Virus record (IMG/VR): IMGVR_UViG_3300050343_000285
Location: 1 to 64,000 of that record
DNA: 64,000 bases
Origin: a virus
Direction: 5' to 3' (one strand)
Of the stretch, positions 3,299 through 43,545 are shown in pieces. The number at the start of each line of letters is the position of its first letter. Positions within the stretch are counted from its first letter, which is position 1. A model generated the notes under the pieces. That model worked only from the letters and a program-made list of their open reading frames with translations. It had not been told where the DNA came from and ran no database searches. Position numbers and translations under genes: made by a program.

Positions 3299-3453
3299 TT
3301 CAGTTCCTTTCGTAAGAGTGTCATTGCCTTTGTTCTCTCAGTATACCATATATATCGTCGGATGCAAGGGGTATTCTTTAAACAAAATAAAAATAAACGT
3401 AAGTCCTTGTCAGTAAACAACTTACGAGCAACCCGGCCGCACTATTTATGCCG

Positions 3454-4008
3454 TTATAGATATTCTATACCCAAGTCTTTTTTACAATATTCGGGATGGT
3501 TTCTGTATGCACACTCATCTTTTATATAAGAGTAAACCCCCATACACTTAGATCGTGAACTTTCTATATCAATACTTTTTAGGATATGCTTAATAGTATC
3601 TCCTGAACATATTAAATCATCAACAATAATATATTTCTTTGTATATGGGCCTTCTACATAGAATTTGCTGTACCCTTTTAAATCTTTCCTTACAATAATA
3701 ATGTTCTTTTTTAATAACTCAGCAATCTGTGGAACAATCATCAATCCGCTAGTACCACAACAGGCTATTGAATCATAATCAATATTTAACTTTTTTAGAT
3801 AAGAGTATGTTGTCATAATTATCCTATTTCGATATTTATGATTTAACAACTTAGAAGTATGAGCAGCGCCTTGTATAACGCTACCATCTTCATTTCTTCT
3901 GTATTCATCTAATTGTTGCATTAAAACATTCATAATATAAAGACTGGCGACCTGATTCGAACAGGCTATATAATTTATAACTAGATAGATATATGTGTCC
4001 CACCACAC
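3454..4008 (-). CDS. type I phosphoribosyltransferase-like protein (start probably ~3933)
   Basis: PRPP-binding motif YIIVDDLICSGDT; IACCGTSG and IIIVRK. Confidence 0.8.
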   Translation of the reverse strand: MWWDTYIYLVINYIACSNQVASLYIMNVLMQQLDEYRRNEDGSVIQGAAHTSKLLNHKYRNRIIMTTYSYLKKLNIDYDSIACCGTSGLMIVPQIAELLKKNIIIVRKDLKGYSKFYVEGPYTKKYIIVDDLICSGDTIKHILKSIDIESSRSKCMGVYSYIKDECAYRNHPEYCKKDLGIEYL

Positions 4009-4026
4009 CGCACCAGCCAGAAGAGA

Positions 4027-4206
4027 TCAGTATTCTATTTTATCACTAATATCATCATAATAATTCCAACTTTGTCTGTCAACGGTATCTTCTCTACAAT
4101 CTTCATCATACTCCTCATTATTAATCATGGACTCAATATAATTAGCGCTATTATCAAAAATATCATTATTGTTATCCTTTAATACTTTCCATTCAAAGCC
4201 ACTCAT
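4027..4206 (-). CDS. small acidic hypothetical protein (59 aa, below the track cut-off)
   Basis: MSGFEWKVLKDNNNDIF...; AAGGAGAG SD. Confidence 0.6.
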   Translation of the reverse strand: MSGFEWKVLKDNNNDIFDNSANYIESMINNEEYDEDCREDTVDRQSWNYYDDISDKIEY

Positions 4207-4244
4207 AAAATCTCTCCTTTGTGAAAACTACCGAACATCACCAG

Positions 4245-4317
4245 TACCCCCAGTAGGACTCGAACCTACAACATACGGTTTAAAAGACCGCTACTCTACC
4301 GATTGAGTTATAGGGGC
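4245..4317 (-). tRNA. trnK: tRNA-Lys(UUU), no encoded CCA
   Basis: Cloverleaf: GCCCCTA/TGGGGGT acceptor, anticodon loop CTTTTAA, GTTCGAGTC T-loop. Confidence 0.9.
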
Positions 4318-4321
4318 AAAG

Positions 4322-4394
4322 TAGGGCGTGAGGGAATCGAACCCACTTCTGTAGTTAATAAGACTACGGTCCTTGACCATTGAACGAACGCCCC
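4322..4394 (-). tRNA. atypical tRNA with anticodon UAU (Ile), U at position 37
   Basis: GGGGCGT/ACGCCCT acceptor, GTAGT-CTTATTA-ACTAC anticodon arm, GGTTCGATT T-loop with one T-stem mismatch. Confidence 0.7.
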
Positions 4395-4400
4395 GTAGCA

Positions 4401-4739
4401 CTACCACCAACTACTATATTCTACGCTCATGCCTTTGCAGATGGCTGCACGAGCATTCTGGATAAATTGAGTATCCTCATCCTTGTAATAATCATCACTA
4501 TCGCCACCAAAAAAGAAACCTTGAGTTTCTGGTAAATCTTTCTGATTAATGGCTTTATTGAGATCGTCAAGATCTTCTGTAGTTATTTCTACAGCCACGC
4601 AATTAAATTCTTCCTTGCCACCTTTTTTATGATACAAGTCTTCCATCCATCCCTGAAGATTAGGGTGTTTTCTCCAGCAAGCGATTTCTTCACTATTACC
4701 TTCTGAGTCTACAGCGTATGCAAATTGATCCAAACCCAT
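4401..4739 (-). CDS. conserved-looking phage hypothetical protein (MGLDQ...WRKHPNLQGWM...YSSWW)
   Basis: ORF with AAGGAG SD and sigma70 promoter TTGACT-16-TATAAT at 4759-4786. Confidence 0.8.
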   Translation of the reverse strand: MGLDQFAYAVDSEGNSEEIACWRKHPNLQGWMEDLYHKKGGKEEFNCVAVEITTEDLDDLNKAINQKDLPETQGFFFGGDSDDYYKDEDTQFIQNARAAICKGMSVEYSSWW

Positions 4740-4937
4740 TTGTCTCTCCTTTTCTTAAATTATACCCAAGATGTCCAATAAGTCAATAGTCCGCTAATGC
4801 TCTTCTCCGAATATCCATGCGGGTGCGAACTCTGCGAGGCCGGTTATCATGAGTACCAGAACCAGAACGATGAATGTTGTGTCCACGAGATACCTCCCAA
4901 GGTTTTTTAGTTGAAACTTTTATTGAACCACATTTAC

Positions 4938-5237
4938 TCATAGTTTATCCTTTAATAAGTCTTCAAGAAATTCCTTAGCAACATGATCAGGATCCTCTTC
5001 TACATCCACATCACATACATTTAGTTCTCCATCAAAAGCATCTCTGTATGCTACTCCTAAGTCTTCTAGTATGTAATCATCACGCTCATCTTCGTCTAAT
5101 TCCTGATACTCTGTACCTGTAATAATATGTTTATGAGATTCATTCTCTATATAATCTCCGATCCATTGAAATCTGATACTCTCAGGGTCAGCCTCAACCC
5201 AACCAGAAAACTCTATGATAATTTTAGTCATTACCAA
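4938..5237 (-). CDS. acidic hypothetical protein
   Basis: ORF track; GGAG SD. Confidence 0.65.
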   Translation of the reverse strand: MVMTKIIIEFSGWVEADPESIRFQWIGDYIENESHKHIITGTEYQELDEDERDDYILEDLGVAYRDAFDGELNVCDVDVEEDPDHVAKEFLEDLLKDKL

Positions 5238-5339
5238 GTTTCTCCACTATTAGGTCACAAATCATATCAATAGTGCTAGGATCACTACGACCATCAAGGA
5301 TACATCTAATGTCTTCTTGCATTTGTTCACATATCTCGT

Positions 5340-5513
5340 TCACTTTCTGCTCCAATCTCTAAAGAACTCCCATCGAATCCCAACGTCCATTGTACCATCT
5401 ACTGGTCGATTGTCAAGGGATATTGTTTTATTACAGAACATAGTGGTTTTTGTAGTTGTTACACATCCACTACAGAATATCAAGATGAACGCCAAACATA
5501 GTCTATATACCAT
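5340..5513 (-). CDS. small putative lipoprotein (57 aa)
   Basis: MVYRLCLAFILIFCSGC lipobox-like N-terminus; AAGGAGG SD; sigma28-like element at 5535-5562. Confidence 0.55.
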   Translation of the reverse strand: MVYRLCLAFILIFCSGCVTTTKTTMFCNKTISLDNRPVDGTMDVGIRWEFFRDWSRK

Positions 5514-5668
5514 TCCACTACCTCCTTAAGAGTTATATCGTCATCCTCAAGGATTTTCTTTACCTTATCTGTCTCTACCTGATTCATCACACTCATCTTG
5601 TGATTTAGGTAATCTAATACTGTTGTTATTTTTTCTTTTTTATCCAATATTATTCTCCAAATAGTTAA

Positions 5669-5740
5669 TAGCCCCGGCGAGAATCGAACTCACATCGACG
5701 GTTTAGAAGACCGCTGTTCTATCCGTTGAACTACGAGGCC
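5669..5740 (-). tRNA. trnR: tRNA-Arg(UCU)
   Basis: GGCCTCG/CGGGGCT acceptor, GCGGT-CTTCTAA-ACCGT anticodon arm, GTTCGATT T-loop. Confidence 0.9.
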
Positions 5741-5748
5741 AATAAGAA

Positions 5749-5797
5749 AGCCAGAGCCGCAGTCTTGGTTATCCCCATTGACGCTGCGACTCTGACT
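5749..5797 (-). other. long RNA hairpin (14-bp outer stem) between the ORF and tRNA-Arg; terminator or processing site
   Basis: AGTCAGAGTCGCAG/CTGCGGCTCTGGCT with G-U pairs only on the minus strand. Confidence 0.6.
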
Positions 5798-5804
5798 ATT
5801 CCGA

Positions 5805-6065
5805 TTAGGCTGTAGCAACTTCTGCTTCTACCCTAGCCTTAGATGCCTTATGAGCATCACCGGCTTCTTTAACGCCAATACCGAACTTACGGTTGCGAGC
5901 AACTTTCCATCCTTGTTCTGAATATTCCTTAACACCGTCTGCTTTACACAGGGCTAGAGTATCTTCAGGCAATCCGTCAGTAAGTGCTTGACGAATTGTA
6001 TCTTCGATAACTTCGGTATCAAGTGCCTCAGAAGCAATAGTAACATTAAAAGAAAAAGCCTTCAT
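5805..6065 (-). CDS. hypothetical protein (86 aa)
   Basis: ORF downstream of composite promoter 6142-6170. Confidence 0.7.
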   Translation of the reverse strand: MKAFSFNVTIASEALDTEVIEDTIRQALTDGLPEDTLALCKADGVKEYSEQGWKVARNRKFGIGVKEAGDAHKASKARVEAEVATA

Positions 6066-6252
6066 GGTGAAATCTCCAAAAGTAAACCAAACTTAGTAAC
6101 TCGCACAGTGCTTGTCACTTATAATATCATTCTACCATATATTATCGTCATGTCAACCTTAATAACTTGAGGAAAGGTAAAAAAATAATCTCTCGTAAGT
6201 CGTTGATATAAAACAACTTAGGCATGCTGCGTGCGGCCGTTTTTACAGAAAG

Positions 6253-6590
6253 ACCCGTTACAGCCCTACTTCTCAAAGATGTCTTTTAGTCAAATAAGAC
6301 TAATAACCCTCATAACGATTTTCAGCGATCTGTAACGGGTAATAGATAAACCGCCTTGCCCCATGAAACAATAACAGGATAGGTCTTACAGGCGGTTATA
6401 TTATTGGACGGGGAGGACTTCTTTTTCTACCTCCAACTTTTCAGGGCATGATATGTCAGTGTTCCCTACTTCGCACCGCTAGCCCAAACCTCAAGCACTC
6501 GCCCGTTGGTAAGGATTCGCGTACTGTTGCACCCTCATGCGGGCCAGCACACTTTCAGTCACCGTCCTATAACAGGGTAGCGAACCCTGC
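6253..6590 (-). ncRNA. structured non-coding cassette containing a 163-nt tRNA-like multibranch RNA (6405-6567) and flanking long stems
   Basis: GGACGG/CCGTCC+A closing stem stacked on GGAGG/CCTCC; GCTGGCCC/GGGCTAGC; AACCGCCT/AGGCGGTT; ACCCGTTACAG/CTGTAACGGGT; GC-rich; no ORF of 60 aa or more. Confidence 0.7.
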
Positions 6591-6601
6591 TATGTATTGT
6601 A

Positions 6602-7117
6602 TTATGTTTCCTCCATAGTATCATAGTATTCGTGCATACTGAACTCATCTCGCAGAGATTCTGGAAAATCGTTCCAGTTGCCCTCATAAGAATCATCCGT
6701 ACCATTGTGCCATATTCCGGCAAAACTCATCCCTGGCTCAAAATAGGACGCTTGTACGTCAAATCCCAAGACTACCAACCTCTCATAGAATCCCAATGGA
6801 GGACTCCATGCACTATCGAACGTTATACTAAGTTCGTTATCTACCCTAGTTGGTTCCAGACCATACCCATCTCCACATCCAATATCCCACTTTGTACCCC
6901 AATTGGCTACACGCCATAGATACCAGTTGTTGTTTACGTTATCATCTTTGCTCATAGCCTTATTCTCACCCATCATCATAGTTGGATCACTGGGATCTCG
7001 TGGAGTAGGATAGAAAGTTTCGATAGTCCAATCATTCCGATAGGCTTTCTCGAATTTGTCCAGCATAGACTTATCTTCGTGTGTTACAGTCAATTTATTC
7101 ATGCACCAATTAGGCAT
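6602..7117 (-). CDS. YubB/Api92-like (DUF1281) ferredoxin-like domain protein
   Basis: MPNWC...WYLWRVANWGTKWD...FDSAWSPP...YFEPGM signature. Confidence 0.8.
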   Translation of the reverse strand: MPNWCMNKLTVTHEDKSMLDKFEKAYRNDWTIETFYPTPRDPSDPTMMMGENKAMSKDDNVNNNWYLWRVANWGTKWDIGCGDGYGLEPTRVDNELSITFDSAWSPPLGFYERLVVLGFDVQASYFEPGMSFAGIWHNGTDDSYEGNWNDFPESLRDEFSMHEYYDTMEET

Positions 7118-7508
7118 AACATCTCTCCTCTACAATATGTATTCTGTTGCCGTCCGTGACCAGACTATTAAAGTCATAGTCGTCCCAATCAAAATCGCCG
7201 TCATCATTCACTCGTCTCCAACTTGGCTCGACTATAGGATTATAACATAATCTTTCTAGGTTGTCAATAGGTATACTACCCTTTTCATTTATAAAAAAGT
7301 TATCACATTCTACCCAACCACAGACATCCTTCTTTCCTGCTGCATGAACTTTCTTAGCAGCATTTTTTTTATTTATTAGTATACAGCCTGTCATTTCGAT
7401 CTGATACTTTTGTGGATCAAGATACGAGACTGTACCATCCCATGCTCTAATCTGCCAGTGCATATAGTGCTTACCACGTTGCAAGTGAAATCGTACTCTG
7501 TATTTCAT
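7110..7508 (-). CDS. hypothetical protein (start MKYRVRFHL; track start overlaps the promoter)
   Basis: GGAGAAGGAG SD before the ATG at 7508. Confidence 0.7.
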   Translation of the reverse strand: MKYRVRFHLQRGKHYMHWQIRAWDGTVSYLDPQKYQIEMTGCILINKKNAAKKVHAAGKKDVCGWVECDNFFINEKGSIPIDNLERLCYNPIVEPSWRRVNDDGDFDWDDYDFNSLVTDGNRIHIVEERCYA

Positions 7509-7601
7509 AATTATCTCCTTCTCCCTAGTATACATTATCGGCATTATATTGTCAAGAACTTTAGTAATTTCGCTGACTGCACCATTGCCACCAATCCTAT
7601 A

Positions 7602-7822
7602 GGATAGGGTGAGACATAATAGGACTTAGGCATTACTCGTACTAGAGCAACTCTTTCCCGTATACCTGTCAGGCTGCCAAGGTGGTATACGCCCTATCCA
7701 TCTTAATGTACGGCCATCGCACTAGGGACTTGCACCCTACAAGTATCTCCGAATGTTTGACGACAAAGCCTTATCGTATCACAATCTTGGGCTTGAATAC
7801 TTGGGTAACTCTTCCGTGCCAT
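7602..7822 (-). ncRNA. second structured non-coding cassette: tRNA-like ~107-nt RNA (7716-7822) plus a multibranch hairpin (7602-7699)
   Basis: ATGGCAC/GTGCGAT acceptor-like stem, TAGGG-TGCAAGT-CCCTA T-arm, CAAGTATT/GATACTTG; GGATAGGG/CCCTATCC enclosing GTATACC/GGTATAC; directly downstream of promoter 7843-7870. Confidence 0.65.
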
Positions 7823-7941
7823 GTATTGTAAGTATACTATATTTATCGTCATTGTCAATAGTATTCTTTAGTATAATATAGAAATAATTATGGCACAAGG
7901 AGTGCGGCCGGGTCGCACGTAAGTCCTTATTCTACAACAAC

Positions 7942-8169
7942 TTACGTAGGGTATCCTTCTTTTCTTAAAATGTCTTTAGTTGGTACGACAAAAGTTAATT
8001 GGTCCGCATTCGTATAGTCTTTCATTCCACGCTGATCAATATACATATACTCGTCTAAAATATCATGTTTATTCATTTCATGTATCACTGTTCTACAGGC
8101 AGCGTAGGGTTGTTGACTTGTCGAATAAATTAATTGTAGAGTACCACTTGAAATATAATATTTAGCCAT
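7942..8169 (-). CDS. hypothetical protein (75 aa)
   Basis: ORF; stop codon falls inside a 29-bp inverted repeat. Confidence 0.65.
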   Translation of the reverse strand: MAKYYISSGTLQLIYSTSQQPYAACRTVIHEMNKHDILDEYMYIDQRGMKDYTNADQLTFVVPTKDILRKEGYPT

Positions 8170-8389
8170 CTATCCATACCTCCGAGTGTGAATATTCCAT
8201 ATCTATATCACATCCACCGCAAACAGGAGTTCCATTCTGTTCGTACCAATCTGGCATTATCTCAACTTCTGTACTACAGTCTTGACATATCCAAAAATTT
8301 TTTATGTGATCATCTGGTATTTTTGTAAACATTATAGGATTCTTTCTTAATGAGATGGAAACAATACGTTGCCTAATCCCTTTACGCAC
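8162..8389 (-). CDS. small zinc-ribbon protein (start probably 8332)
   Basis: CQDC...CGGC pairs. Confidence 0.65.
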   Translation of the reverse strand: MRKGIRQRIVSISLRKNPIMFTKIPDDHIKNFWICQDCSTEVEIMPDWYEQNGTPVCGGCDIDMEYSHSEVWIDG

Positions 8390-9057
8390 AAATTACAGGC
8401 TACACTATTCTTAGTAGGGGTGCAAGTAACAACACCACGACCACGACGAATCTCTGGACAAGTAATATATTTTTCTTCACCAAGAACAACCAACTTGGGC
8501 AGACTATCACGCCATTCTTGAGCCTTAACCTTTCCCCTTGGACGTTTAGTAGCAATTTTTTCGTCGCTATCGCACCATGCGAATAATTTGAAACCTACCG
8601 CTTTGGCATCGAGAACATTTTGAGCATTGTGGACACTAGCATATACAGCCATATACTTGTCCAGACTAACAAGCCGACTATCATAAATATGAGTATAAAA
8701 CCACATATCTGGCAAATTACCACCAGAGGCAAGAATACTCTCGCAAGCCCATACGATATTATCGACATATTCTACATCCAATTCTGAACCATTTTTATAA
8801 AAATCACCACGCTCATGCCAACGAATAGACTTATCTTTTTTTTCTGCGTTCACTATCATAGCACGGATTTTGTTTTTCTCCGTGATTAGATTCTGCATAC
8901 CAGCAGGACGAACACCGGGATAAATTTTTTCTAATTGTTCGGCATAACAACCATTACCTAGAAAATCACAACTAGGCGGGCATGTGTCCCCAACTGGTCG
9001 AGAAACTACAATACATTTTTCTTTACCTAGTTTATCATTACCGTTTGCTGTTTTCAT
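8347..9057 (-). CDS. phage gp88-like protein
   Basis: TCPPSC...GCYA, IRWHERGDF, WFYTH, YASVH, TCPE...C...CNLC pattern. Confidence 0.7.
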   Translation of the reverse strand: MKTANGNDKLGKEKCIVVSRPVGDTCPPSCDFLGNGCYAEQLEKIYPGVRPAGMQNLITEKNKIRAMIVNAEKKDKSIRWHERGDFYKNGSELDVEYVDNIVWACESILASGGNLPDMWFYTHIYDSRLVSLDKYMAVYASVHNAQNVLDAKAVGFKLFAWCDSDEKIATKRPRGKVKAQEWRDSLPKLVVLGEEKYITCPEIRRGRGVVTCTPTKNSVACNLCVKGLGNVLFPSH

Positions 9058-9311
9058 AATACTGCTCTCCGTGTGTGTGCTTCAAGTATATCATATTATC
9101 GTCTGGTGTCAACTAAAAACTATAGAAAAAATAAAAATAATGTTTGGCACAGAATTTGCTACACTTTCGCTGGCTATACCATATCGGCCCAGCCTTTAGG
9201 CTTAGATAAGACATGAGGTCTTTCGGCACACGGAGTGCGGCCGGTCCGCACCTAAGTCATTGCTGGGCAACAACTTAGGGCGGTTCACGGCACACACACC
9301 ACGGAAGAGAG

Positions 9312-9695
9312 TTATGCTACTGCCCAACCAAATAATGGCTTGCGGCAGTTCTTTACACGTTCGCAGTAAAACTGTCGAACATTACCATCCACTGTTTCAC
9401 ATGTTACCAAATGATTGGTACGCTGAAACTTTGGATCATTTCGACGATAGGTACTATGAGCATTCATTTTACGAATTGTCCGCTCGTCGAACTTTACAAC
9501 AGGCTCCACAACGCGAGCCAAAACACGTTTTGAGTCTCCGTGTAGAGGTTGCATATACTCAAAGTTGTATACTTCTCCAACTTGAGCATTGCACAAACTA
9601 GCACGAAAACCACCATATACAGCATAGATACCAAACGCAATCAACGCAAGGGCTCCTGCTGCTAAGATACCAGCAATCAACATTACATTATCCAT
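9312..9695 (-). CDS. hypothetical protein with N-terminal TM helix (start MDNVML)
   Basis: Hydrophobic LIAGILAAGALALIAFGIYAV; upstream sigma70 promoter 9733-9761. Confidence 0.7.
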   Translation of the reverse strand: MDNVMLIAGILAAGALALIAFGIYAVYGGFRASLCNAQVGEVYNFEYMQPLHGDSKRVLARVVEPVVKFDERTIRKMNAHSTYRRNDPKFQRTNHLVTCETVDGNVRQFYCERVKNCRKPLFGWAVA

Positions 9696-9757
9696 TATAA
9701 AACTCCTAAGTGTGAAAACCAAACCTAAAACCATTCTACCATACTCTTGACACCGTG

Positions 9758-10060
9758 TCAAGCCTTAATCGTCATTCCATCCTCAAAAGGTGTAATCCCA
9801 TTTACATACCATTCCCAATTTTCTTGGCGTACATAAAAAGGACTAAACTTATTGATTCTGTCTTTTGTCGTGGGTGATTTGTGCCCACCATGTCTTAGCG
9901 TTACGCTGTCGTCATCATGAATAGTAACAACATCCGTACTGTATAACATGAAAGCCACGCTACCATCCGGCTTGATTCTTGCGGTGGTATTATTGGCTAC
10001 CTTACGTTGCATTCTGTTAGTCTTACCTAAAACCAATTGTGTTGCTTCTGCGTGTGTCAT
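9758..10060 (-). CDS. hypothetical protein (100 aa)
   Basis: AAGGAG SD; composite promoter 10082-10110. Confidence 0.75.
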   Translation of the reverse strand: MTHAEATQLVLGKTNRMQRKVANNTTARIKPDGSVAFMLYSTDVVTIHDDDSVTLRHGGHKSPTTKDRINKFSPFYVRQENWEWYVNGITPFEDGMTIKA

Positions 10061-10184
10061 AAGTATTTCTCCTTACTTGTTATATCGTCAATTATACAGG
10101 GTAAACTTTAGTTGTCAACAGAAAAAAAAGAAAATAATTTTTGGCATACTGCGTGCGGCCTCTTTTTATGTAAGTCCTTATAGA

Positions 10185-10529
10185 TCAATCACTTACGTTC
10201 ATATCTCTGTGACCCCAAAATCTCATTTCGTTTTCTTTATCATCCCAATAGCATTGTACCTCATCTTTAGAACATAGTTCGGCTAATACAAAACCCATAT
10301 TCATACTATTGACATCTTCTAAAAACATTTCCATTTTTTCTCTAGTAGATATAAACTCCCCATCGTCTTCTTCACAATAGCCACGTAAATGATTAATCAA
10401 CATACCCTCATTAAGATTTTCAAAGTCTGGAATTATATGTTCAACAACGCGATTAAGATCTACCGCAAATTCTTCCATGGTTTTTCTCCTTAATTTTTCA
10501 AAATCAGCAACTAACAACCAACTCATCAT
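10185..10529 (-). CDS. acidic hypothetical protein (start probably ~10478)
   Basis: ORF; 3' end overlaps a 29-bp inverted repeat. Confidence 0.6.
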   Translation of the reverse strand: MMSWLLVADFEKLRRKTMEEFAVDLNRVVEHIIPDFENLNEGMLINHLRGYCEEDDGEFISTREKMEMFLEDVNSMNMGFVLAELCSKDEVQCYWDDKENEMRFWGHRDMNVSD

Positions 10530-11097
10530 CCTGTACTAAATTACGCTCTAGCATACGATCCATAATAGTATCCATAAGCCTACCATAATCATATGTTGGC
10601 TCATCTTGAAAATCAAGCCCTTCCGACGGGTGAATAATAAAGTCTAAGGTATCATGAGGTATTGATGCTGTTATCTTATCCCCACTATGTTCAAAATACT
10701 TACAAATATTATTATAACTACCTACAGCAATAGAATATGGTGCAGAAGTTTGAGTAAGTATGATGTAATCAAACATTTTTTCTATATTATAGTTTTTACC
10801 TAACTTGTTAGCAATCGTTACAGCATTGGTTTTGCCAGTACGTTTCTGGAACATTTTTTGTTGAGATTTTCCAGATACTCGTTCTTTACAAAAAGTCCAA
10901 TCGTATCCAACCTCATCTACATATTCTAGATATGGAAAAACTTTAGCATATTTTTTATCAATCAGTTTTGCTTTCATAAATCTGTGACCAGAATCATTTA
11001 AGCTGGCTCCAATGTTATGGCATTGTTGAAGTAGTTCGTGACAGCTTTTTGGACTGTTAGTTAAATAAGCTGAGAGTAAATTACTTACGGTTTTCAT
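10504..11097 (-). CDS. hypothetical protein, possible PD-(D/E)xK nuclease fold
   Basis: GYD...ERVSGK and FDYIILTQ motifs (weak). Confidence 0.6.
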   Translation of the reverse strand: MKTVSNLLSAYLTNSPKSCHELLQQCHNIGASLNDSGHRFMKAKLIDKKYAKVFPYLEYVDEVGYDWTFCKERVSGKSQQKMFQKRTGKTNAVTIANKLGKNYNIEKMFDYIILTQTSAPYSIAVGSYNNICKYFEHSGDKITASIPHDTLDFIIHPSEGLDFQDEPTYDYGRLMDTIMDRMLERNLVQDDELVVSC

Positions 11098-11159
11098 AGC
11101 GTTGTCCTTTCGTATTTAGTATCTTACCATACTATTATCGACGTGTCAATATCAAAACT

Positions 11160-11465
11160 TTATTCTTCGTAAGTAATAAATACCCACGACCACTCTCTGG
11201 TTTTTAGATTGTATTTATAATGTTTATAAACTACCCTATTGTAAATATGTCTATTGTCCACAGTGGTTTTAAGAATATCATTTTCCAGACTTATATCTAC
11301 TATATCAGAGTAGGGAAAGTCTAACAGCAAACGATAGTCGCTACTGTAAAACCAGTAGGTATTATATGTCTTATTGTATGTTCTATGGACACGTTCACCT
11401 ATATAATCTAAATCAATTACACAGTTTCCTGAAATAGCTAATCCTAAAATTAGTTTTAATAACAT
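11160..11465 (-). CDS. hypothetical protein, signal-peptide-like N-terminus
   Basis: MLLKLILGLAISGNC; AAGGAG SD. Confidence 0.65.
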   Translation of the reverse strand: MLLKLILGLAISGNCVIDLDYIGERVHRTYNKTYNTYWFYSSDYRLLLDFPYSDIVDISLENDILKTTVDNRHIYNRVVYKHYKYNLKTREWSWVFITYEE

Positions 11466-11647
11466 TTTGTTTTCTCCTTGTTTTAGTCTTAAGTATTGCT
11501 ATTCTACCAATTATTATCGTCTAGATCAAGCAATTTCTTGATTTTTATTTTGGTAGCTGTAAGTGCTTGTCAAATAAGAACTTAGGCACGCAGAGTGCGG
11601 CCGGGTAGCCCCTCTAGGGGGTGAACCCTATTTGAGGAGCATTACCT

Positions 11648-11860
11648 TCAATTAGATGTAATATTGTTGTAAGGATAATTCCCATTATAAGGGCTGTTAC
11701 CATAATTCGGACTAGGCTCTTCTGGTCTTTCCTCGTAGTATTCTTCTCGTTCATATTCGCTCTCCTTAGCGTCTAACATATCCCTGAGATACCAACACAA
11801 CAACGTGCCGCATACATATCCTATCGTCAAACTAGCAACGTCAAGTTGAATAAAATTCAT
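11648..11860 (-). CDS. small membrane protein
   Basis: Hydrophobic N-terminal segment; overlaps the upstream stop codon (ATGA). Confidence 0.6.
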   Translation of the reverse strand: MNFIQLDVASLTIGYVCGTLLCWYLRDMLDAKESEYEREEYYEERPEEPSPNYGNSPYNGNYPYNNITSN

Positions 11861-12087
11861 TCTCCCTTATACTCCTCATAAGTGAAACTTTGTACGCCAT
11901 TACGATATTGTTGCTCTACAACACCTGAAATTGCTACAATATTTTCTTGACGATCTTCTGGTGTGTTAAGATCAATTCTAGGTACTGCTACCATGATTGT
12001 CAAGTTGTCCTGCTCTTCGCCTGTAATTTCATCGACAATATTTTTGCAATCGTAGTATCTAAAATTTGGATCCATCGCGTTATTCAT
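11857..12087 (-). CDS. hypothetical protein
   Basis: Translationally coupled ORF. Confidence 0.65.
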   Translation of the reverse strand: MNNAMDPNFRYYDCKNIVDEITGEEQDNLTIMVAVPRIDLNTPEDRQENIVAISGVVEQQYRNGVQSFTYEEYKGE

Positions 12088-12266
12088 TTTTCATCCCTGT
12101 ATCGTTTGAGTAATTCTTTAGAACCTGATCGAACCACATTTTCTAATATCTCTAATTCTGTCAAGTCTCCTCTCAATTTTGCTTTCGGGATGTCCTTTCC
12201 ACATTCCCTAACCCACATCTGTATATCTTCGGTTGGAAATTCGTCAAAATAGTATGGCATATCCAT
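12084..12266 (-). CDS. hypothetical protein
   Basis: Translationally coupled ORF. Confidence 0.6.
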   Translation of the reverse strand: MDMPYYFDEFPTEDIQMWVRECGKDIPKAKLRGDLTELEILENVVRSGSKELLKRYRDEK

Positions 12267-12269
12267 AGT

Positions 12270-12533
12270 TTAACCCCAATCTTCTGGATACTCAAGACAG
12301 TCGTGGTAGCATTCCCATTCCGCCCCGTATCCGTATAGATCGTTACATTCCTGCTCAAGATCAGGCTGTCCGTCATCATCCCCATCATAGAAGGCATGTT
12401 CGTACTGATCATCCTCCATCATGTCACGGGTGTCAAGACCATCAACAACGTCCTCATCTGAACGATAAATGTTTTCAGCAGGTGTCATAACTTTTCTCCA
12501 ATTGGGTCTTGTTGTTATATTCCAAGTATACAA
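12270..12533 (-). CDS. acidic hypothetical protein (start probably ~12488)
   Basis: Track start overlaps promoter 12537-12564; GGAGAAAAGTTATG. Confidence 0.6.
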   Translation of the reverse strand: MYTWNITTRPNWRKVMTPAENIYRSDEDVVDGLDTRDMMEDDQYEHAFYDGDDDGQPDLEQECNDLYGYGAEWECYHDCLEYPEDWG

Positions 12534-13022
12534 TCATTATCGACATTGTCAAGCGAAATCTTTATTTTTTTTCATAGATTGTGTCCAAGTAAATTTCCTC
12601 CGGCGTGATAACATAACCATACTCACAATTAGGGGTATACACTCCGAAATATACTTTTCCGTTGTCGTACCCTTCGAACCCGATCATCATGCCAAAGATA
12701 GTGTAGATTGTCAACATCATTTTTCTCCGTGGGTTATTGTTTCCTATATATATTATCGACTTGTCCAGGCGAAAACATTAGGATAAAAAAGAAAATTTTT
12801 GGGAATTCACTGGCTGTCGTGCTATGACAAGTGAAGCGGGAGGCTTAGGTGCGACAGAACGTATACCAACTTTGGCGGCCGGTCGAACTGCTCGTAAGTC
12901 CTTTACTGACAACAACTTACGATTACTTTATGTTAAATACTAATTTAGTAAACATATAAGCAAACAACAACACGTACCCCATCGAAACGATAGGGCCGTA
13001 TTGCTGAATGAATGGAACCAAG

Positions 13023-13286
13023 TCAAGCCACGGCTGCATCATCTTCTTCTACCTCGTCGTCTTCCGCATCTTCAGCAAAACATGCTGCGTTGATCTCATC
13101 TATATCTAAGTTGCTATCATTCCATGCTACATGGTCAGGAGTTTCCAGTGAATCCAACTCCCGCATAGTACCAACAAACTCATCATAATTAGCACAAGAC
13201 ATGCTGAGATTGTAGAGCCCTTCATCGTTAGCAATCCACAAGCAAACATTCCACGTTTCATAGTTTTCATATCCGTTGTAACTCAT
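13023..13286 (-). CDS. phage hypothetical protein (YNGYENYETWNVCLW type)
   Basis: GAGG SD; sigma70 promoter TTGACG-16-TATACT at ~13332-13359. Confidence 0.75.
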   Translation of the reverse strand: MSYNGYENYETWNVCLWIANDEGLYNLSMSCANYDEFVGTMRELDSLETPDHVAWNDSNLDIDEINAACFAEDAEDDEVEEDDAAVA

Positions 13287-13490
13287 GATAGCCTCTCAAG
13301 TAAAATCATTGAAACAGTAACCACTAAGAAAAGTATAACACACATTCCATCAGCGTCAAATCTTTTTTTCATCTTTAACTCCTTACTGTTATATCGACAT
13401 TATATACAGTATAACTTTAGTTGTCAATAGATAAATTTAAAATATTTTGCGGCCGCACTCCCTGTGCCTAAGTCCTTTACCGATAATGGT

Positions 13491-13919
13491 TTACGTCAAC
13501 AATACATATCGTTTCTTATTACCTCCCATTGTTTCCAGTTTTGAAATTTTATGTCGAAAAAATAAGGCTGCTTTCCCTTGTATATATCTACTGCTTAGAT
13601 GTTGATTCATTTCCTCGAATGATATTTTATCTTTACCCTCTACCATCTGATTCCATATAACATCTTTCTGCTCTGATGTAACATACTTAGGATTCATAGG
13701 AGTAGCAGTCATACTCTTCATCTTTTGTTCAATTTGTTTCTCTACAAACTCTGGTGATAGGTCACTCATAATATCAGAGTACTGTTCTTTTATATCCTTT
13801 ACTCTCTGCTCATATCGTTGGTACTGCTCTATTATCAGTCGATTCTGAATTAGTACTTCTGCCATATCTCTGCACATATCATCTAATGCTGTCAATCTTG
13901 TTTCAAAATCCATAATCAT
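13491..13919 (-). CDS. hypothetical coiled-coil protein
   Basis: ORF track; coupled to the upstream gene. Confidence 0.7.
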   Translation of the reverse strand: MIMDFETRLTALDDMCRDMAEVLIQNRLIIEQYQRYEQRVKDIKEQYSDIMSDLSPEFVEKQIEQKMKSMTATPMNPKYVTSEQKDVIWNQMVEGKDKISFEEMNQHLSSRYIQGKAALFFRHKISKLETMGGNKKRYVLLT

Positions 13920-14182
13920 TCTCCTTTGGATGTTTTATTGCCCCATGCTTTAATAGCAGATACTGAACATGCGTGAAGGTTATTGTCAAATTTAAATATA
14001 CCTCCTACCGTTTCAATACTCTCTGTTGCCCAACCCTTACCATCATTCATGTCTTCTCTGTAATAACACATCTCCGTTCCTTTATAAGTATACATATCTA
14101 CAACTTTCCTACGCCATCCATGACCCTTTTTTCTTTCCCATACACTTCCGGTTTCTACTGTAATTATTTTTCTGTTACTCAT
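13916..14182 (-). CDS. hypothetical protein
   Basis: Coupled ORF. Confidence 0.65.
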   Translation of the reverse strand: MSNRKIITVETGSVWERKKGHGWRRKVVDMYTYKGTEMCYYREDMNDGKGWATESIETVGGIFKFDNNLHACSVSAIKAWGNKTSKGE

Positions 14183-14343
14183 TGTAAAAGTTCCTGCAAT
14201 GTAAAATGTTGTCTGCTACTCTCATTCCGTCCTTATCGTCAGTCTCCCAACAAGACACGTAGTACATTTGTACCAAACGAGTTGATAACTTGTCAAGGAT
14301 ATCATATAGGTTCTTTTCAATTAGTTCGTTCATTGTAAGCATA
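14175..14343 (-). CDS. hypothetical protein (start MLTMNEL)
   Basis: GGAGAG SD inside the end of the upstream gene. Confidence 0.55.
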
Positions 14344-14679
14344 CTCTCCTGTGTCATAGTTTCTAATCTCTTGTAGTCTATCAGCAATTTCAAAATGGTC
14401 AAGCCATCCAAATACTTCTACCGCCCCATGTCGCTTGTGTATAGGATGACTCTCTAATACTTTGTACGACATATTAGGATCGGTGCCGTGTTTATGTTCT
14501 ATAATCCAGACTTCAAAGTAGCCGCTATTCCCGCCATAACTTTTGTCATGATTACACACAATAGCACCAAGCCCATTAGAGAAAAAATAACGCTTAACAT
14601 ATCGACCCTTCTCTTTCATATACTGGGAATCAAAATATGTTTCATTTAGTTTCAGTGGGTTCACTTTAGTTGTGATCAT
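14317..14679 (-). CDS. hypothetical protein (FSNGLGA...YGGNSGYFEV type)
   Basis: GAGGAG SD. Confidence 0.7.
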   Translation of the reverse strand: MITTKVNPLKLNETYFDSQYMKEKGRYVKRYFFSNGLGAIVCNHDKSYGGNSGYFEVWIIEHKHGTDPNMSYKVLESHPIHKRHGAVEVFGWLDHFEIADRLQEIRNYDTGEYAYNERTN

Positions 14680-14878
14680 TTTTTACTCCTCAATATGTGA
14701 TAGTGTGAATGGGATTATAACATGATCGGCTACCTTTTGTCTAGCCTCAGTTTCTGTCATGGCCCCAACTTCGCCAATCTTATTTCCTTGTAGGTCAATT
14801 ACAGCCCAAACATTTTTTCTAGGATACACTACGCAATTATTGTTACTCATTTTAATTTCTCCTTATTTATAAAGTTTA

Positions 14879-15061
14879 TCAGCCAGCCCCGTGGAAGTCA
14901 AGGCTAGATTCAAAATGTACAGCTTCCGAACAATCAAAGTCTGTACGATCTTCGATAACCTCACAATGTTCGTAGCATGTGGGACAGATGTCTGCGTCGG
15001 AGTGAACCGAAGCACCACAGCAGTCTGAAGAGTAAACGATTTCAAAGTTGTTATTTAACAT
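14879..15061 (-). CDS. small Cys-rich (zinc-binding) protein
   Basis: SDCCGA...ICPTCYEHC; promoter 15113-15140. Confidence 0.7.
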   Translation of the reverse strand: MLNNNFEIVYSSDCCGASVHSDADICPTCYEHCEVIEDRTDFDCSEAVHFESSLDFHGAG

Positions 15062-15299
15062 TTTCTTTTCTTTCTAATCTTTGTTACTTGTTATATCTGA
15101 AGTATATATACTATATCGGAATTTGTCAAGCAATAATTTAGAAATATTTTTATTTTTTTTCTGTGTGCAAATATCATGCCATAATTTTTTTTCTTTTGGC
15201 ACATGATTTGCTATATGTTAAGATAGGTAACCCGGCCGGGCGAAATGCTCGTAAGTCATGATGTGGCAACGACTTACGAACATCCACCCCAATGGGTGA

Positions 15300-15512
15300 T
15301 TATGCAGCCTGATAGTGGCGTATACGATTACTTCTTCTTACTCTTTTTAGTTTTTCTCGTACGGCTTCTTTCATAAGTTCAGCAACTACACTATATTTTT
15401 TTGTAGTGTAAGTCTGTTCATTATCTCTTAGATCTTGTCCAAGTGTACGGATCCAAGCATCTAGTTCAACTGTTTTCATTTGCTGGAAAGTACTCATAGG
15501 TTTATTCTCCAA
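15300..15512 (-). CDS. hypothetical protein
   Basis: ORF track. Confidence 0.6.
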   Translation of the reverse strand: MENKPMSTFQQMKTVELDAWIRTLGQDLRDNEQTYTTKKYSVVAELMKEAVREKLKRVRRSNRIRHYQAA

Positions 15513-15786
15513 ATGGTGATTGTTCTAAGGTGGTTGCATAATGTAAACGTAACGCTGCTATTCTTTCATCACTTCCCGGTTTACCTACTGGTATAATCAT
15601 ATCGTCTTTACTACTAAGATACCTATCGTCTACCTTCGCTTGCTCACTCTTTACAATTTTTCTCATAGCCTTTCTATTAAACTTATGAACCGTACCATCC
15701 TGTTCAACACCTTTCCATATCATACTACATTCATCCCATGCAGCGGATAAAATAGGATATTTTCTCATTAGTTTTTCTGTACTCAT
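15502..15786 (-). CDS. hypothetical protein
   Basis: ORF track. Confidence 0.65.
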   Translation of the reverse strand: MSTEKLMRKYPILSAAWDECSMIWKGVEQDGTVHKFNRKAMRKIVKSEQAKVDDRYLSSKDDMIIPVGKPGSDERIAALRLHYATTLEQSPFGE

Positions 15787-16148
15787 TTTTTATCATCCTC
15801 AAATATAGGGTCGCCACACTCATCAACTGGTATACCGTCTTCACTCATAAATATATCACCATTCCGCAGTCCGTCAATAGTAATTTCTAATTTTTCTTGC
15901 TCTGTAAACATTTAGAATCTTTCCTGTCTACTGTGCTGCATTTAAGTAAATTTCATCGAATAAGTCTACCCCAGTGACTTCACACCAATCAAGCGGGTGT
16001 GAATTGTTGTCATCGCAAGGTTCTACCACACCTTCATTTTCTAGGGCGGCAATTAACAGTTGAGTATTTATATCTAACATCTCAATTTCTCCGTGGTAAG
16101 TGTATCAAAAGTGTACCAAAATTTTTCTGTCTACGTCAATAGCAAAAA

Positions 16149-16346
16149 TTAACCTAATCCCCAAACGCGGTTTAGGTCATAACTATTCTGTAATGTTCTC
16201 ATTACAATAGAATCATCTTGACAAAATTTGCCATTCTTAGCATATCCGATTACCTTGTTGGTATCGGTTGTTACTACTACTTGACGATTGTGAACGTCTA
16301 CGATTTTAAGATTGTTAGCTATTCGATTTTTTTGTGAAATAATCAT
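16149..16346 (-). CDS. hypothetical protein
   Basis: AAGGA SD; promoter 16378-16406. Confidence 0.65.
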   Translation of the reverse strand: MIISQKNRIANNLKIVDVHNRQVVVTTDTNKVIGYAKNGKFCQDDSIVMRTLQNSYDLNRVWGLG

Positions 16347-16526
16347 TTTTTATCCTTTGTTTAATGTCCTATTTACTATATCGGAATTTTAGCATAGTAA
16401 ACTTTAATGTCAAGAAAAAACTTTTTTTCTTTTCTAATATATATATAGTGCAAGTATCATGCCATTCGGATAAAATTTTTTTGGCTATACTTGTATACTT
16501 TTTATATTGTCATTATGGCATAATTC

Positions 16527-16744: not shown

Positions 16745-18202
16745 CTATCCTGTTTGCCCCAACAGCTTCTTAGATCCTACTAGCTGCCTTAATTCTTGAA
16801 TAGCTCCATCATCAAATTCCATCTCTACCCCATACTCCCTTTTACATATCTCCAATAATTCCTCATCTGAATACCTATCGCCAAAATATTCAACTAACTT
16901 TTCCGCCTCTATTCCCCACCTAGATAGAGCATCTCTTCTGTATAAATCCCCTGACTTTTCTTGAATCATCTTTGGTTTATATAGACTTAAATGAAATCTC
17001 ATTGCTCTAATCGTTCCTAACTTATATGAAGTTCCTAACTTTTGATTAACTAGTATCGCTAGGTCCTCATCTGAATATTCTTCATAATTATCTCTAATAA
17101 CACTCATGGCCCCTGTTTTGTCGCAATTTTTGATTCTTTTTCTATTTTTATTGATTGATTTGCCTTTAATTTTTCTTTTCATATTGCTTACTTGACGAGG
17201 TGTTAACTTTAAATCAAATTTCTTATTCAAAGCTTCTGCTATTTTAATATTCTTTTTCCCATACCTCTCCTCACACTCCTGTACAAATTCCTGTATATCT
17301 TTTCTTTTCCATAAACCTGGTCTCATAGCTCTTTTGTTATTATATATATCAGGATACTTTTTCCTTAACCCTAATTTCTTTTCCCAGCTATATACTGCTG
17401 TAGACACACTCTTATATTTCCTTTGGCAATTTCTTTTCCATCCATATAATTCAGTCAACTTATCTGCATCTCCCTCTAACCTTACCCAATCGTTTTCGAA
17501 TCTTCTTGGAAAATCCCCTCTTTTATCAATACTATTTTCACTATGAGTACCAGCTTTTAAATGATCTGGATTATAACAGCATTTATTATTACATAAATGA
17601 CGTACCAATTCTGGGTATTCTCCATATTTTTCCCAATAAGCTACTCTATGCTTAGTTAAATGTTTTACTTCACCATTTATCCGTATTTGCACCTTACCAT
17701 ATCCTGATCGCTGAATAGCATTACTTTCTTTACAAGGTGTTGCATTATAAAAGTTTTTATTGCTATAACTAAAATTATTCTTATATGCCTTACTCTTGAT
17801 AGCTTTTTCTAACCATGGTTTAATTTTGTCCACACTAATTGCCACCCACTTATTTAATAAATTATCTTTCGCCCACTTATGCTGATACTCTCTTTCTTTT
17901 GACAAAATTTCATCTTCGCTAAAACGCTCTAGTATAACAAAATTCATTTGATATTTAGGATCGTTATAACACTCTAGTAATTTACTTGAAGTTTTATAGC
18001 TAGTATTCTTTATATCTCTTAGATGCTGTTGACATCTATATATAATATCCATACTACTACCAACATAAATTTTAACACTTTTAACATTCTTCTTATTAAA
18101 AACAATACCATACACTCCACAGACCTTTTCCCTTGATCCTAAATGTACTTTTTCAAACTTTTCTACTTGGTCTTGAGTTAGTCTTTTTTGTTTTTGGCTC
18201 AT
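16745..18202 (-). CDS. free-standing endonuclease: GIY-YIG domain + HNH (His-Cys zinc-loop) domain + C-terminal HTH-like region
   Basis: GVYGIVF...IYVGSS...YRCQQH...ILE; GYGK...HRVAY...VRHLCNNKCCYNPDHLKAGTHSEN. Confidence 0.8.
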   Translation of the reverse strand: MSQKQKRLTQDQVEKFEKVHLGSREKVCGVYGIVFNKKNVKSVKIYVGSSMDIIYRCQQHLRDIKNTSYKTSSKLLECYNDPKYQMNFVILERFSEDEILSKEREYQHKWAKDNLLNKWVAISVDKIKPWLEKAIKSKAYKNNFSYSNKNFYNATPCKESNAIQRSGYGKVQIRINGEVKHLTKHRVAYWEKYGEYPELVRHLCNNKCCYNPDHLKAGTHSENSIDKRGDFPRRFENDWVRLEGDADKLTELYGWKRNCQRKYKSVSTAVYSWEKKLGLRKKYPDIYNNKRAMRPGLWKRKDIQEFVQECEERYGKKNIKIAEALNKKFDLKLTPRQVSNMKRKIKGKSINKNRKRIKNCDKTGAMSVIRDNYEEYSDEDLAILVNQKLGTSYKLGTIRAMRFHLSLYKPKMIQEKSGDLYRRDALSRWGIEAEKLVEYFGDRYSDEELLEICKREYGVEMEFDDGAIQELRQLVGSKKLLGQTG

Positions 18203-18326
18203 ACCCAGTATCTCCTTTACTCCTGTATAAATACTATCCTTATAGTAACTAGTTTTATTATTTTTTTAATATCTTGGTGTATAATCTTAATATTGTAAGA
18301 TCAGCATTCTAATAAGGTATATAATA

Positions 18327-21212: not shown

Positions 21213-21244
21213 TCTATTTTACATAAATAGAGAGATATTTTTTG

Positions 21245-21271
21245 AAGCACCTGAGAAATCGGGTGCTTTTT
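21245..21271 (+). terminator. intrinsic terminator
   Basis: AAGCACCTGA-GAAA-TCGGGTGCTT-TTT. Confidence 0.8.
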
Positions 21272-21328
21272 GTGTATATAATTATATAGCATTTGATATG
21301 TAAACGATAAAAATACAAGGGTATCACG

Positions 21329-25436: not shown

Positions 25437-25629
25437 ATTAAATCCTATACTTTACTTGGTGTAATTATATCGTATAATAGTATATTAATCCTTTTGAGAA
25501 AATGGTCAATCATGAAAAATAAAAAATACCGTAATGTAGCTCATTCTACCATTAAAGTCATTGCTTCTGAGAATATCGATATATCTCATGATCTTAATAA
25601 TAATGAGCATAAAAGTATAGCACAATTAT

Positions 25630-26289
25630 ATGAGGAAGAAAATTCCAAAGAAGAAAATCCTACAGAAGAAAACATCAAAAAAAACGAATCAGAAGAATGA
25701 AGTAGTATCAGAAGAAGAGTTTTTAGCTGTTTTAGAAAACATAAGTAAAAGACTATGCTATAAATTTAAATTTGCATATCATGATATTAATGATATGAAG
25801 CAACAAGCTGCTATTTTTGCTATAGAAGGCTTAGAAAAATATGATTACTCTAGACCATTAGAGAACTTTTTATGGACACATGTTAGGAATAGATTATTTA
25901 ATTATAAGCGAGATAACTATCAAAGGCCGGATAAGCCATGTTTAACATGTCCTTTATATAACATTAATTCATCAGATGGTAATGACTGTAATGAATTTAA
26001 TGATAAGTTTAATTGCCACGCTTATAGATCTTGGTTTCAACGTAATAATAATAAAAAAGGTATTATTCAACCATCTTACATAGATAAGATAGATCCAGCT
26101 AGTAACCAAGATTTTGTTGACAATATATCTGATCAGCAATTAATAGATTTTATAGAAGAAAATTTACCAGTTAAATATAGAAGCACCTACCTTAAGTTAA
26201 AATATGGTCAAAAGGTAGTTAAAAATGAAAAAGTGAAATTGCAGAATTTTATTAAAAAGAAACTCATACCTAAGTATAAAAATGAATAA
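25630..26289 (+). CDS. phage RNA polymerase sigma factor (sigma70 region 2) with Cys insert
   Basis: DINDMKQQAAIFAIEGLEKYDYSRPLENFLWTHVRNRLFNYKRD; CLTC...C...C. Confidence 0.75.
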   Translation: MRKKIPKKKILQKKTSKKTNQKNEVVSEEEFLAVLENISKRLCYKFKFAYHDINDMKQQAAIFAIEGLEKYDYSRPLENFLWTHVRNRLFNYKRDNYQRPDKPCLTCPLYNINSSDGNDCNEFNDKFNCHAYRSWFQRNNNKKGIIQPSYIDKIDPASNQDFVDNISDQQLIDFIEENLPVKYRSTYLKLKYGQKVVKNEKVKLQNFIKKKLIPKYKNE

Positions 26290-43519: not shown

Positions 43520-43545
43520 ACATAATTTGTTTATATCATACATTC

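Follow-up and report, generated by a model that had tools for sequence, protein, structure and literature searches.

In enterobacteria, fliA and flgM each have sigma70 (class 2) and sigma28 (class 3) promoters, placed in tandem and tens of nucleotides apart. Phage T4 carries early and middle promoters before the same genes (MotA/AsiA), and phage SPO1 runs a sigma cascade with gp28. Early promoters of phages are generally taken to depend on the housekeeping sigma of the host, alternative sigmas being employed only when brought by the phage. The early block treated here lies in a 64,000-nt stretch of a 194.8-kb phage record; this stretch, as analysed over its full length, is referred to as the window. 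Its sites were compared with the sigma28 promoter, for which the published consensus is TAAAGTTT-N11-GCCGATAA (PMC7286023), with a TAAAG-to-CGATA gap of 16 at E. coli FliA sites (PMC4183435).

Occurrence, spacing and consensus of the element

The literal pattern TAAAGWWW-N12/13-GHCGATAW was scanned, with shuffles and the reversed pattern as controls. It matched 7 times in the window (3352, 5535, 7843, 10082, 11135, 12537 and 13391) and 13 times in the whole record, always on the minus strand; shuffles and the reversed pattern gave 0 matches each. The preliminary description had counted fourteen minus-strand matches, so that its number has to be lowered to 7 for the pattern as written; with one departure allowed, further window sites were obtained at 7535, 16378, 15113, 6142, 9096 and 12753. 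The bipartite word pair was present on the minus strand at the coordinates claimed, as was the perfect GCCGATAA at 7535–7563. A scoring matrix trained only on relatives, at a threshold of ≥14 bits, picked up 12 sites in the window and 20 in the genome, every one on the minus strand (plus strand: 0); shuffled sequence gave 0.8 per strand. Scores in the window spanned 17–27 bits. The sigma28-type element is genuine and greatly exceeds chance expectation.

Only at 17 and 18 nt did TAAAG-to-CGATA gaps accumulate on the minus strand (6 + 10 sites), every other gap from 8 to 29 being represented by at most 1 site. In related contigs, the 82 sites lying outside the selecting pattern were distributed as 27 + 55 over gaps 17/18, on a background of 2–3 per gap, and the canonical gap of 16 was found at 0 of about 140 clade sites. 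The spacer is longer than that of E. coli FliA by 1–2 nt (gap 17/18 vs 16), as had been proposed, and N13 is commoner than N12 in the phage. The consensus, including positions that were not searched, was cTAAAGwTT-N12/13-tGCCGATAA. Across 125 clade sites, TAAAG was preceded by C/T and followed by w, T (66%) and T (66%) in the −35 block, and in the −10 block CGATA was preceded by t, G (92%, position −2) and C (50%, position −1), with A as the next letter in 68%. Agreement with the sigma28 consensus extends to about 13/16 positions, some of them unused in the search. Compared with a sigma28 promoter as defined, both 8-mer blocks and the upstream, co-oriented placement are present; the 11-nt spacer is not.

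Every site is on the strand that codes for the early block (minus), 16–100 nt 5′ of a start codon, and the element occurs only at early genes, with none in the replication and structural blocks. Two further matches were set aside. The one at 105813–105841 of the record (20.8 bits, no sigma70 promoter) probably belongs to a coding sequence, where it specifies an acidic stretch, and was not conserved in relatives; a plus-strand TAAAG-N19-CGATAT at 25553–25582, before a sigma gene, has an off-register gap and no counterpart in relatives, and was taken as chance.

The element is common to a clade of uncultured phages of 145–233 kb. Five complete relatives (terminase 56–69% identical) carry 9–16 co-oriented sites each, which adjoin the late block and are divergent from it. 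Nothing useful came from 50,697 records of cultured phages, whether queried with the region (megablast), a structural protein (tblastn) or a consensus promoter (blastn).

Composite promoters of the early block

A sigma70 promoter was defined as TTGACA, 16–18 nt and TATAAT with at least 10/12 matches. Such a promoter, at 11–12/12, overlaps 9/13 window sites, and the site at 11135 overlaps one of 10/12; the site at 3352 is weaker, and those at 5535 and 12753 fall below the limit.

In the main register (class B), the −35 hexamer lies inside the spacer of the element and TATACT, TAGAAT or TAAGAT follows 16–17 nt later, much as first described. The composite promoter at 3340–3380, on the minus strand like all those below, comprises the element at 3352–3380 (gap 18, 20.5 bits) and sigma70-like hexamers TTGCAT (−35, 3362–3367) and TATACT (−10, 3340–3345). 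At 6129–6170, the element (6142–6170, 17.0 bits) has a degenerate −35 word, TCAAG, with TTGACA at 6151–6156 and TAGAAT at 6129–6134. Likewise, the promoter at 9085–9124 holds an element (9096–9124, 16.6 bits) with the degenerate word TATAG, together with TTGACA at 9107–9112 and TATACT at 9085–9090, and the one at 15101–15140 an element (15113–15140) with the variant word TAAAT, together with TTGACA at 15124–15129 and TATACT at 15101–15106. The same layout was found at 7831–7870 (element 7843–7870, 24.4 bits; TTGACA 7853–7858, TATACT 7831–7836), at 11121–11162 (element 11135–11162, 20.8 bits; TTGACA 11144–11149, TAAGAT 11121–11126) and at 12525–12564 (element 12537–12564, 22.0 bits; TTGACA 12547–12552, TATACT 12525–12530).

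In class A, TTGACA lies upstream and TATAAT or TAAAAT inside the spacer, which bears out the earlier account of the sites at 10082, 13391 and 16378. The first (10082–10118, 24.4 bits) has TTGACA at 10113–10118 upstream of TAAAG and TATAAT at 10091–10096 within the spacer, CGATAT covering the expected sigma70 start. The second (13391–13427) combines the element at 13391–13419 (23.5 bits) with TTGACA at 13422–13427 and TATAAT at 13399–13404, and the third (16378–16413) the element at 16378–16406 (20.0 bits) with TTGACA at 16408–16413 and TAAAAT at 16386–16391.

The two fixed registers originally proposed turned out to be three. At 7527–7563 (class C), the element with the perfect −10 word (7535–7563, 26.7 bits) has TTGACA at 7550–7555, only 8 nt past the start of TAAAG, and TATACT at 7527–7532, a layout conserved in three relatives (L020, L025 and L081). 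Moreover, two sites have no credible sigma70 promoter. The element at 5535–5562 (gap 17, 17.7 bits), which has no credible sigma70 −10, ends 6 nt before the ribosome-binding site and 16 nt before the start codon; that at 12753–12780 (gap 17, 17.5 bits) is a TAATG variant with a poor sigma70 match, and its orthologous site in a relative (L068/G005) has a perfect TAAAG, likewise without TTGACA.

Over the clade, TTGACA starts at −9 to −7 relative to TAAAG (n = 14), at +8/+9 (n = 6) or at +10 to +14 (n = 89), and a further 16 sites have no strong sigma70 match. The internal spacing of the pair stays constant while the sigma70 hexamers shift, and several 11–12/12 sigma70 promoters of the region carry no element. 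Judged by its sequence, the element is an independent, co-oriented, promoter-like module, because the hexamers take three registers around the pair and some copies have no hexamers. Such a module of sigma28 consensus appears to be nested within most early promoters of the phage clade.

Overlap with a sigma70 core, class A covering the −10 and start and class B the −35 and the upstream region, would also be expected if the pair were not a promoter but bound a regulator, of phage or host origin, that shuts off or boosts the early promoter. The nearest collision-free registers would suit occlusion or polymerase contact, and in class A a sigma28-type start, 6–7 nt past CGATAT, would coincide with the ribosome-binding site or lie inside it and leave almost no leader, so that this transcript might translate the first gene poorly. 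A regulator site is nevertheless very unlikely. The half-sites are unrelated words with neither dyad nor direct repeat, and every copy faces the direction of transcription, whereas an operator is expected to be symmetric and free in orientation; the match to the sigma28 consensus includes unsearched positions; the hexamer-less copies at 5535 and 12753 immediately precede genes and have conserved counterparts at orthologous places; and other phages carry whole arrays without any TTGACA.

Candidate readers of the element

The best explanation, which may with equal likelihood be right or wrong, is that host sigma28 promoters are interleaved here with sigma70 early promoters; the reader protein, the start sites and the host named for it are those that we infer. 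Each element (cTAAAGwTT, 12 or 13 nt, tGCCGATAA) would be a promoter of the sigma28 (FliA/SigD/WhiG) class, read by the flagellar sigma28 holoenzyme of the host, and its interleaving with a near-consensus sigma70 early promoter would keep the four recognition blocks from colliding. Early genes (small host-takeover genes and tRNAs) could then be started by either host holoenzyme upon DNA entry. In the main register, the predicted start sites are about 11–12 nt apart: that of sigma28 would fall within the TATACT hexamer, and that of sigma70 about 7 nt past it. If host sigma28 is indeed the reader, the two promoters act in parallel and not in sequence.

Several observations count against this reading. 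Gap 16 is absent from the clade, and N13, dominant in the phage, is rare in the bacterial scan described below; planctomycete flagellin loci mostly have gap 16; the clade keeps a second full sigma; and the GC content of the phage, at 33%, is well below that of typical planctomycetes.

The phage itself encodes sigma factors, one of which had been put forward as a possible reader. This protein, sigma-A (25630–26289, plus strand), consists of region 2, a Cys-rich insert and a degenerate C-terminus, with no recognisable region 4 helix-turn-helix. Its gene adjoins the terminase gene and is conserved in all relatives. As a reader of the element it is ill suited, having no usable region 4, and the −10-only motifs before the late operons, seen by inspection of upstream regions only, fit it better; quick patterns for this late motif were not specific. 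Sigma-A is probably a late sigma that reads such −10-only promoters and not the element. Neither a FliA/WhiG-type sigma nor FlgM was found in the phage.

A second conserved sigma, sigma-B (about 200 aa, regions 2 and 4), was present in 5/5 relatives tested. It exceeds the sigma-70 family cut-off (TIGR02937, 47–60 bits), and its weaker matches include FliA/WhiG/sigma-28 models (E 1e-8 to 1e-5). In the relative G005, a composite promoter like those of the window precedes the sigma-B gene. Were sigma-B made from an early promoter and able to read the element, early genes would be transcribed with host sigma70 at first and by the phage holoenzyme afterwards, which would amount to the two-phase transcription proposed before, albeit with a sigma other than that at 25630. 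The strict gap of 17/18, unlike the usual sigma28 gap of 16, would agree with this, and two phage sigmas would pair neatly with two non-sigma70 motif classes. A phage-encoded reader, of which sigma-B is the best candidate, is unlikely all the same. The recognition helix in region 4.2 of sigma-B is of the RpoD type (R/K-E-x-x-R-Q) and not of the FliA type (E-S-R-x-S-Q), region 3 is missing, and a PDB profile search placed RpoS, RpoD and SigA first. With 15–37 bits against a cut-off of 190 in the FliA/WhiG model, together with the RpoD-type helix and the missing region 3, sigma-B was also rejected as a hidden FliA orthologue. Furthermore, the element is restricted to early genes and missing from the replication and structural blocks, the expected targets of a phage sigma. 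Among other phages with canonical N11 arrays, three whose records are rated complete yielded no sigma factor. The sigma-B gene of the present record is split over three frames, perhaps by a sequencing error.

Host, significance and comparison with known systems

For the preferred reading, in which the sigma28 of the host reads the element, the spacers used by bacteria are relevant. N12 promoters of the sigma28 type were found before flagellin, FliD and rod genes of Spirochaetota, Nitrospirota, Syntrophales and Clostridia. Exact matches in Planctomycetota were distributed as N11:2, N12:2 and N13:4, the N13 form preceding a single conserved gene family in three genomes and the N12 form preceding fliA itself, and those in Bdellovibrionota as N11:11, N12:9 and N13:0. 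Overall, N13 accounted for only 8/121 matches of the bacterial scan and was a small minority outside Planctomycetota. That the host phylum uses only long spacers was ruled out by the planctomycete flagellin loci. The host is probably a planctomycete, an assignment made from gene content only: the phage carries a DUF1559 (PF07596) gene (E 1.7e-44), a family found in 0/14 control genomes. A search of 185,579 bacterial species genomes did not recover the phage terminase gene. Swarmer cells of planctomycetes are motile and have an active flagellar regulon, so that the paired promoters would ensure that early genes are expressed in both types of cell.

Other phage groups have arrays with the canonical N11 spacer, including 11 sites in one 11-kb locus. 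Tentatively, a clade of large phages, probably of Planctomycetota, may wire its immediate-early programme to the host flagellar sigma plus sigma70 through interdigitated dual promoters, and other uncultured groups may do so through canonical sigma28 arrays. If true, these would be the first viruses to use the motility sigma as a transcription switch at entry, the motility state of the host would be read directly at the first step of infection, in the clade and in unrelated uncultured phages alike, and infection success could be tied to the motile (swarmer) cell state. The element could serve as a handle for locating early regions in metagenomic phage contigs and, because spacer length appears to vary between phyla, for host prediction from sequence; the interdigitated layout would offer a compact natural design for a two-sigma promoter.

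Among known systems, T4 and SPO1 resemble the present phage in that a second type of promoter serves early genes and the phage carries its own sigma-like factors. Their second promoters, however, need phage proteins and show no likeness to a host alternative-sigma consensus, whereas here the second promoter has the host flagellar consensus and a matching phage sigma was not found. FliA class 3 promoters of E. coli, Salmonella and Pseudomonas (TAAAGTTT-N11-GCCGATAA) share the same 8-mers, their order and their orientation to the gene, and the flanks agree as well (C before TAAAG, TT after it, G-C before CGATA); the phage sites differ in their N12/N13 spacer, which is never N11, in their position in an early region instead of before motility genes, and in that most are interleaved with a sigma70 promoter. 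The long-spacer sigma28-type promoters of other phyla have N12/N13 as in the phage, but are single promoters. Enterobacterial fliA and flgM offer the likeness of one gene served by two holoenzymes from two nearby promoters; unlike these tandem promoters, those of the phage have their four recognition blocks interdigitated over some 45 nt, a layout that takes three fixed registers and recurs at no fewer than a dozen genes.

Genomic setting and number of elements

The phage record (G000), an IMG/VR entry whose first 64 kb form the window, comprises 194,787 bp at 33% GC (CheckV 100%) and was similar to no cultured phage at the DNA or protein level. Genes are located on the minus strand at 1–18.2 kb and 64.7–194.8 kb, and on the plus strand at 18.3–64.7 kb, where the terminase, the structural genes and a giant tail protein are found. 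The element-bearing block, which lies on the minus strand and adjoins the divergence point, is rich in small genes, holds three tRNAs and gave few Pfam matches, these being to families characteristic of early regions in phages (DUF932, phosphoribosyltransferase, GP88, Kyano_Gp96, DUF7249). A 485-aa protein encoded where the early block meets the late one (16745–18202, minus strand) has an HNH and a weak GIY-YIG endonuclease domain and is probably a homing endonuclease. The terminase reading frame (29111–31142) encodes 474 aa versus about 670–680 aa in five relatives, and a frameshift has probably split the gene in this record.

Fourteen elements, each a TAAAG and CGATAW pair nested with sigma70 hexamers, had been claimed in the preliminary description. 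Its pattern, taken literally, matched 7 times in the window and 13 times in the whole record, but about thirteen elements are real. All 13 literal matches in the record were on the minus strand, and none was obtained in shuffled sequence or with a reversed-pattern control. Allowing one departure added the sites at 7535, 16378, 15113, 6142, 9096 and 12753, the first of which does carry the perfect GCCGATAA previously reported for it. The genome was also scanned with a two-block weight matrix trained exclusively on 109 sites from related contigs, at a threshold of at least 14 bits: 20 minus-strand matches were obtained genome-wide, 12 of them inside the window, and none on the plus strand of the genome, at a shuffled-sequence expectation of 0.8 matches per strand. 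Matches beyond the window fell at 166–192 kb, which is the early block carried on over the record ends. The sole plus-strand look-alike within the window, TAAAG-N19-CGATAT at 25553–25582, is located 48 nt upstream of the sigma gene, is off-register by one, has no counterpart in relatives and is probably due to chance.

Spacing, registers and conservation

The TAAAG-to-CGATA distance was 17 or 18 nt at every site (minus strand, n = 6 + 10), corresponding to spacers of N12 and N13 between the 8-mers, and any other minus-strand distance in the range 8 to 29 occurred at most once. In related contigs, counting only sites not captured by the pattern with which the contigs had been retrieved, 27 sites were at 17 and 55 at 18, versus 2–3 for each other distance. 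The pair always points in the same direction as the genes.

Relative to this pair the sigma70 hexamers shift, as recorded at 125 clade sites and in the window. In class B, comprising 89/125 clade sites and the majority of window sites, TTGACA starts at +10 to +14 from the start of TAAAG; in class A (14/125; window sites 10082, 13391 and 16378) at −9 to −7; and in class C (6/125; 7535) at +8 or +9. A strong sigma70 match, and hence an offset, was absent from the remaining 16/125 and from 5535 and 12753. These registers are the closest ones that avoid collision among the four recognition blocks, and the sigma28-type and sigma70 promoters are interdigitated, more than adjacent. Because the hexamers shift around the pair, and because several sigma70 matches of 11–12/12 occur in the same region without an element, TAAAG/CGATAW is a separate module.

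When IMG/VR was scanned for the class B layout, many contigs carrying 3–8 co-oriented sites were obtained, and homologues of the early genes of this phage were found at most of the multi-site loci. Five complete relatives (145–233 kb), sharing the terminase at 56–69% identity, hold 9–16 elements each, with all but at most one per record on one strand and the majority clustered beside the terminase/sigma block and divergent from it. The three registers, as well as copies without sigma70 hexamers, recur in relatives, some at orthologous positions. One relative (G005, the record of L015) has two diverged terminase copies (12122–13513 and 153735–155129; 69% and 64% identity to the query), and the sigma gene next to the terminase is likewise present in two diverged copies. 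Near each end of the record lies one copy of either gene, a pattern pointing to a chimera assembled from two related phages or to a genuine duplication.

Phage sigma factors as candidate readers

The first phage sigma factor, sigma-A (25630–26289, plus strand), is kept beside the terminase and consists of region 2 with a Cys-rich insert. No region 4 helix-turn-helix was recognisable in it, so sigma-A, previously put forward as a reader of the elements, is unlikely to read a two-block promoter. By inspection, GTGTATAAT/TATAAATATAG-like sequences without a −35 block were located upstream of the plus-strand late operons (18203–18326, 21213–21328, 31143–31200, 36594–36718, 39363–39428 and 43520–43600). 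These −10-only sequences resemble T4-type late promoters and, on the basis of this inspection, are plausibly read by sigma-A with its truncated region 4.

The second, sigma-B, is conserved across the five relatives (L294–L298) as a protein of about 200 aa that has regions 2 and 4; it scores over the sigma-70 family cut-off in four, and the fifth has a shorter form. In the present record it lies at about 104,957–105,500 on the minus strand, broken over three frames with internal stops, owing to either sequencing error or pseudogenization. Reading of the elements by sigma-B is the main rival explanation and would yield the two-phase transcription proposed in the preliminary description, yet we regard it as unlikely. 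As a FliA orthologue sigma-B was rejected: its region 4.2 helix follows the RpoD pattern R/K-E-x-x-R-Q, not E-S-R-x-S-Q as in FliA, region 3 is absent, and its top PDB profile matches were RpoS and RpoD. Neither a FliA/WhiG-type sigma nor FlgM was detected in the phage record.

Comparison with sigma28-type promoters

At clade sites, TAAAG is preceded by C or T and followed by w, T (66%) and T (66%); CGATA is preceded by t, G (92%) and C (50%) and followed by A at 68% of sites. The resulting consensus, cTAAAGwTT-N12/13-tGCCGATAA, agrees with that of sigma28 at positions left free by all search patterns, the published FliA consensus being TAAAGTTT-N11-GCCGATAA (PMC7286023). That the element is instead a regulator-binding site ranks third among the readings and seems quite improbable.

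For bacterial counterparts, 185,579 species genomes were scanned for perfect 8-mers with N12 or N13. At least 121 matches were found; N12 accounted for 113 among the matches listed, many of these from GC-rich taxa, in which chance would not be expected to yield AT-rich words of this kind, and the genes downstream of N12 sites included those for flagellin, FliD and rod proteins. Judged from these matches, the long spacer is also native to bacteria. Exact matches with N11, N12 and N13 numbered 11, 9 and 0 in 81 sampled genomes of Bdellovibrionota, and 2, 2 and 4 in 201 of Planctomycetota. In the latter (genomes L149, L166, L254 and L313), N13 occurs as a perfect sigma28-type match upstream of one conserved gene family in three genomes, and N12 upstream of fliA itself. 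Exclusive use of long spacers by Planctomycetota was rejected, as all three spacers are present and a distance of 16 prevails at their flagellin loci. One planctomycete genome (G006) encodes two FliA paralogues.

DUF1559 (PF07596) is a family typical of Planctomycetota. The phage carries a prepilin-like gene of this family (163936–164763, minus strand, E 1.7e-44), which was found in 0/14 control genomes and hints at a planctomycete host.

An IMG/VR scan with the canonical N11 consensus revealed arrays in further, unrelated contigs (L346, L317, L361, L328, L362/L351 and L393). The densest comprises eleven co-oriented sites at distance 16 in one 11-kb locus, and several others have three or four; TTGACA is absent from most of these arrays. 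L346 shows a conserved GTATA 5 nt downstream of CGATAW. In the three N11-array records rated 100% complete, no sigma factor was detected. Host sigma28 would be the simplest reader for these phages, which makes the same reading likelier for the present one. No paper on sigma28-type promoters in phage early regions was found in the literature.

The best-supported reading, to which we give an even chance, is that the elements are promoters of the host sigma28 class and that these are interleaved with early promoters for sigma70. Counting against host sigma28 are the complete lack of the canonical spacer at phage sites, the predominance of N13, and the coincidence of the predicted sigma28-type start with the ribosome-binding site in class A. 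Compared with E. coli FliA promoters, in which the TAAAG–CGATA distance is 16 (PMC4183435), the phage element matches both 8-mers, and its spacer is, as first described, the longer one, consistently by 1 or 2 nt.
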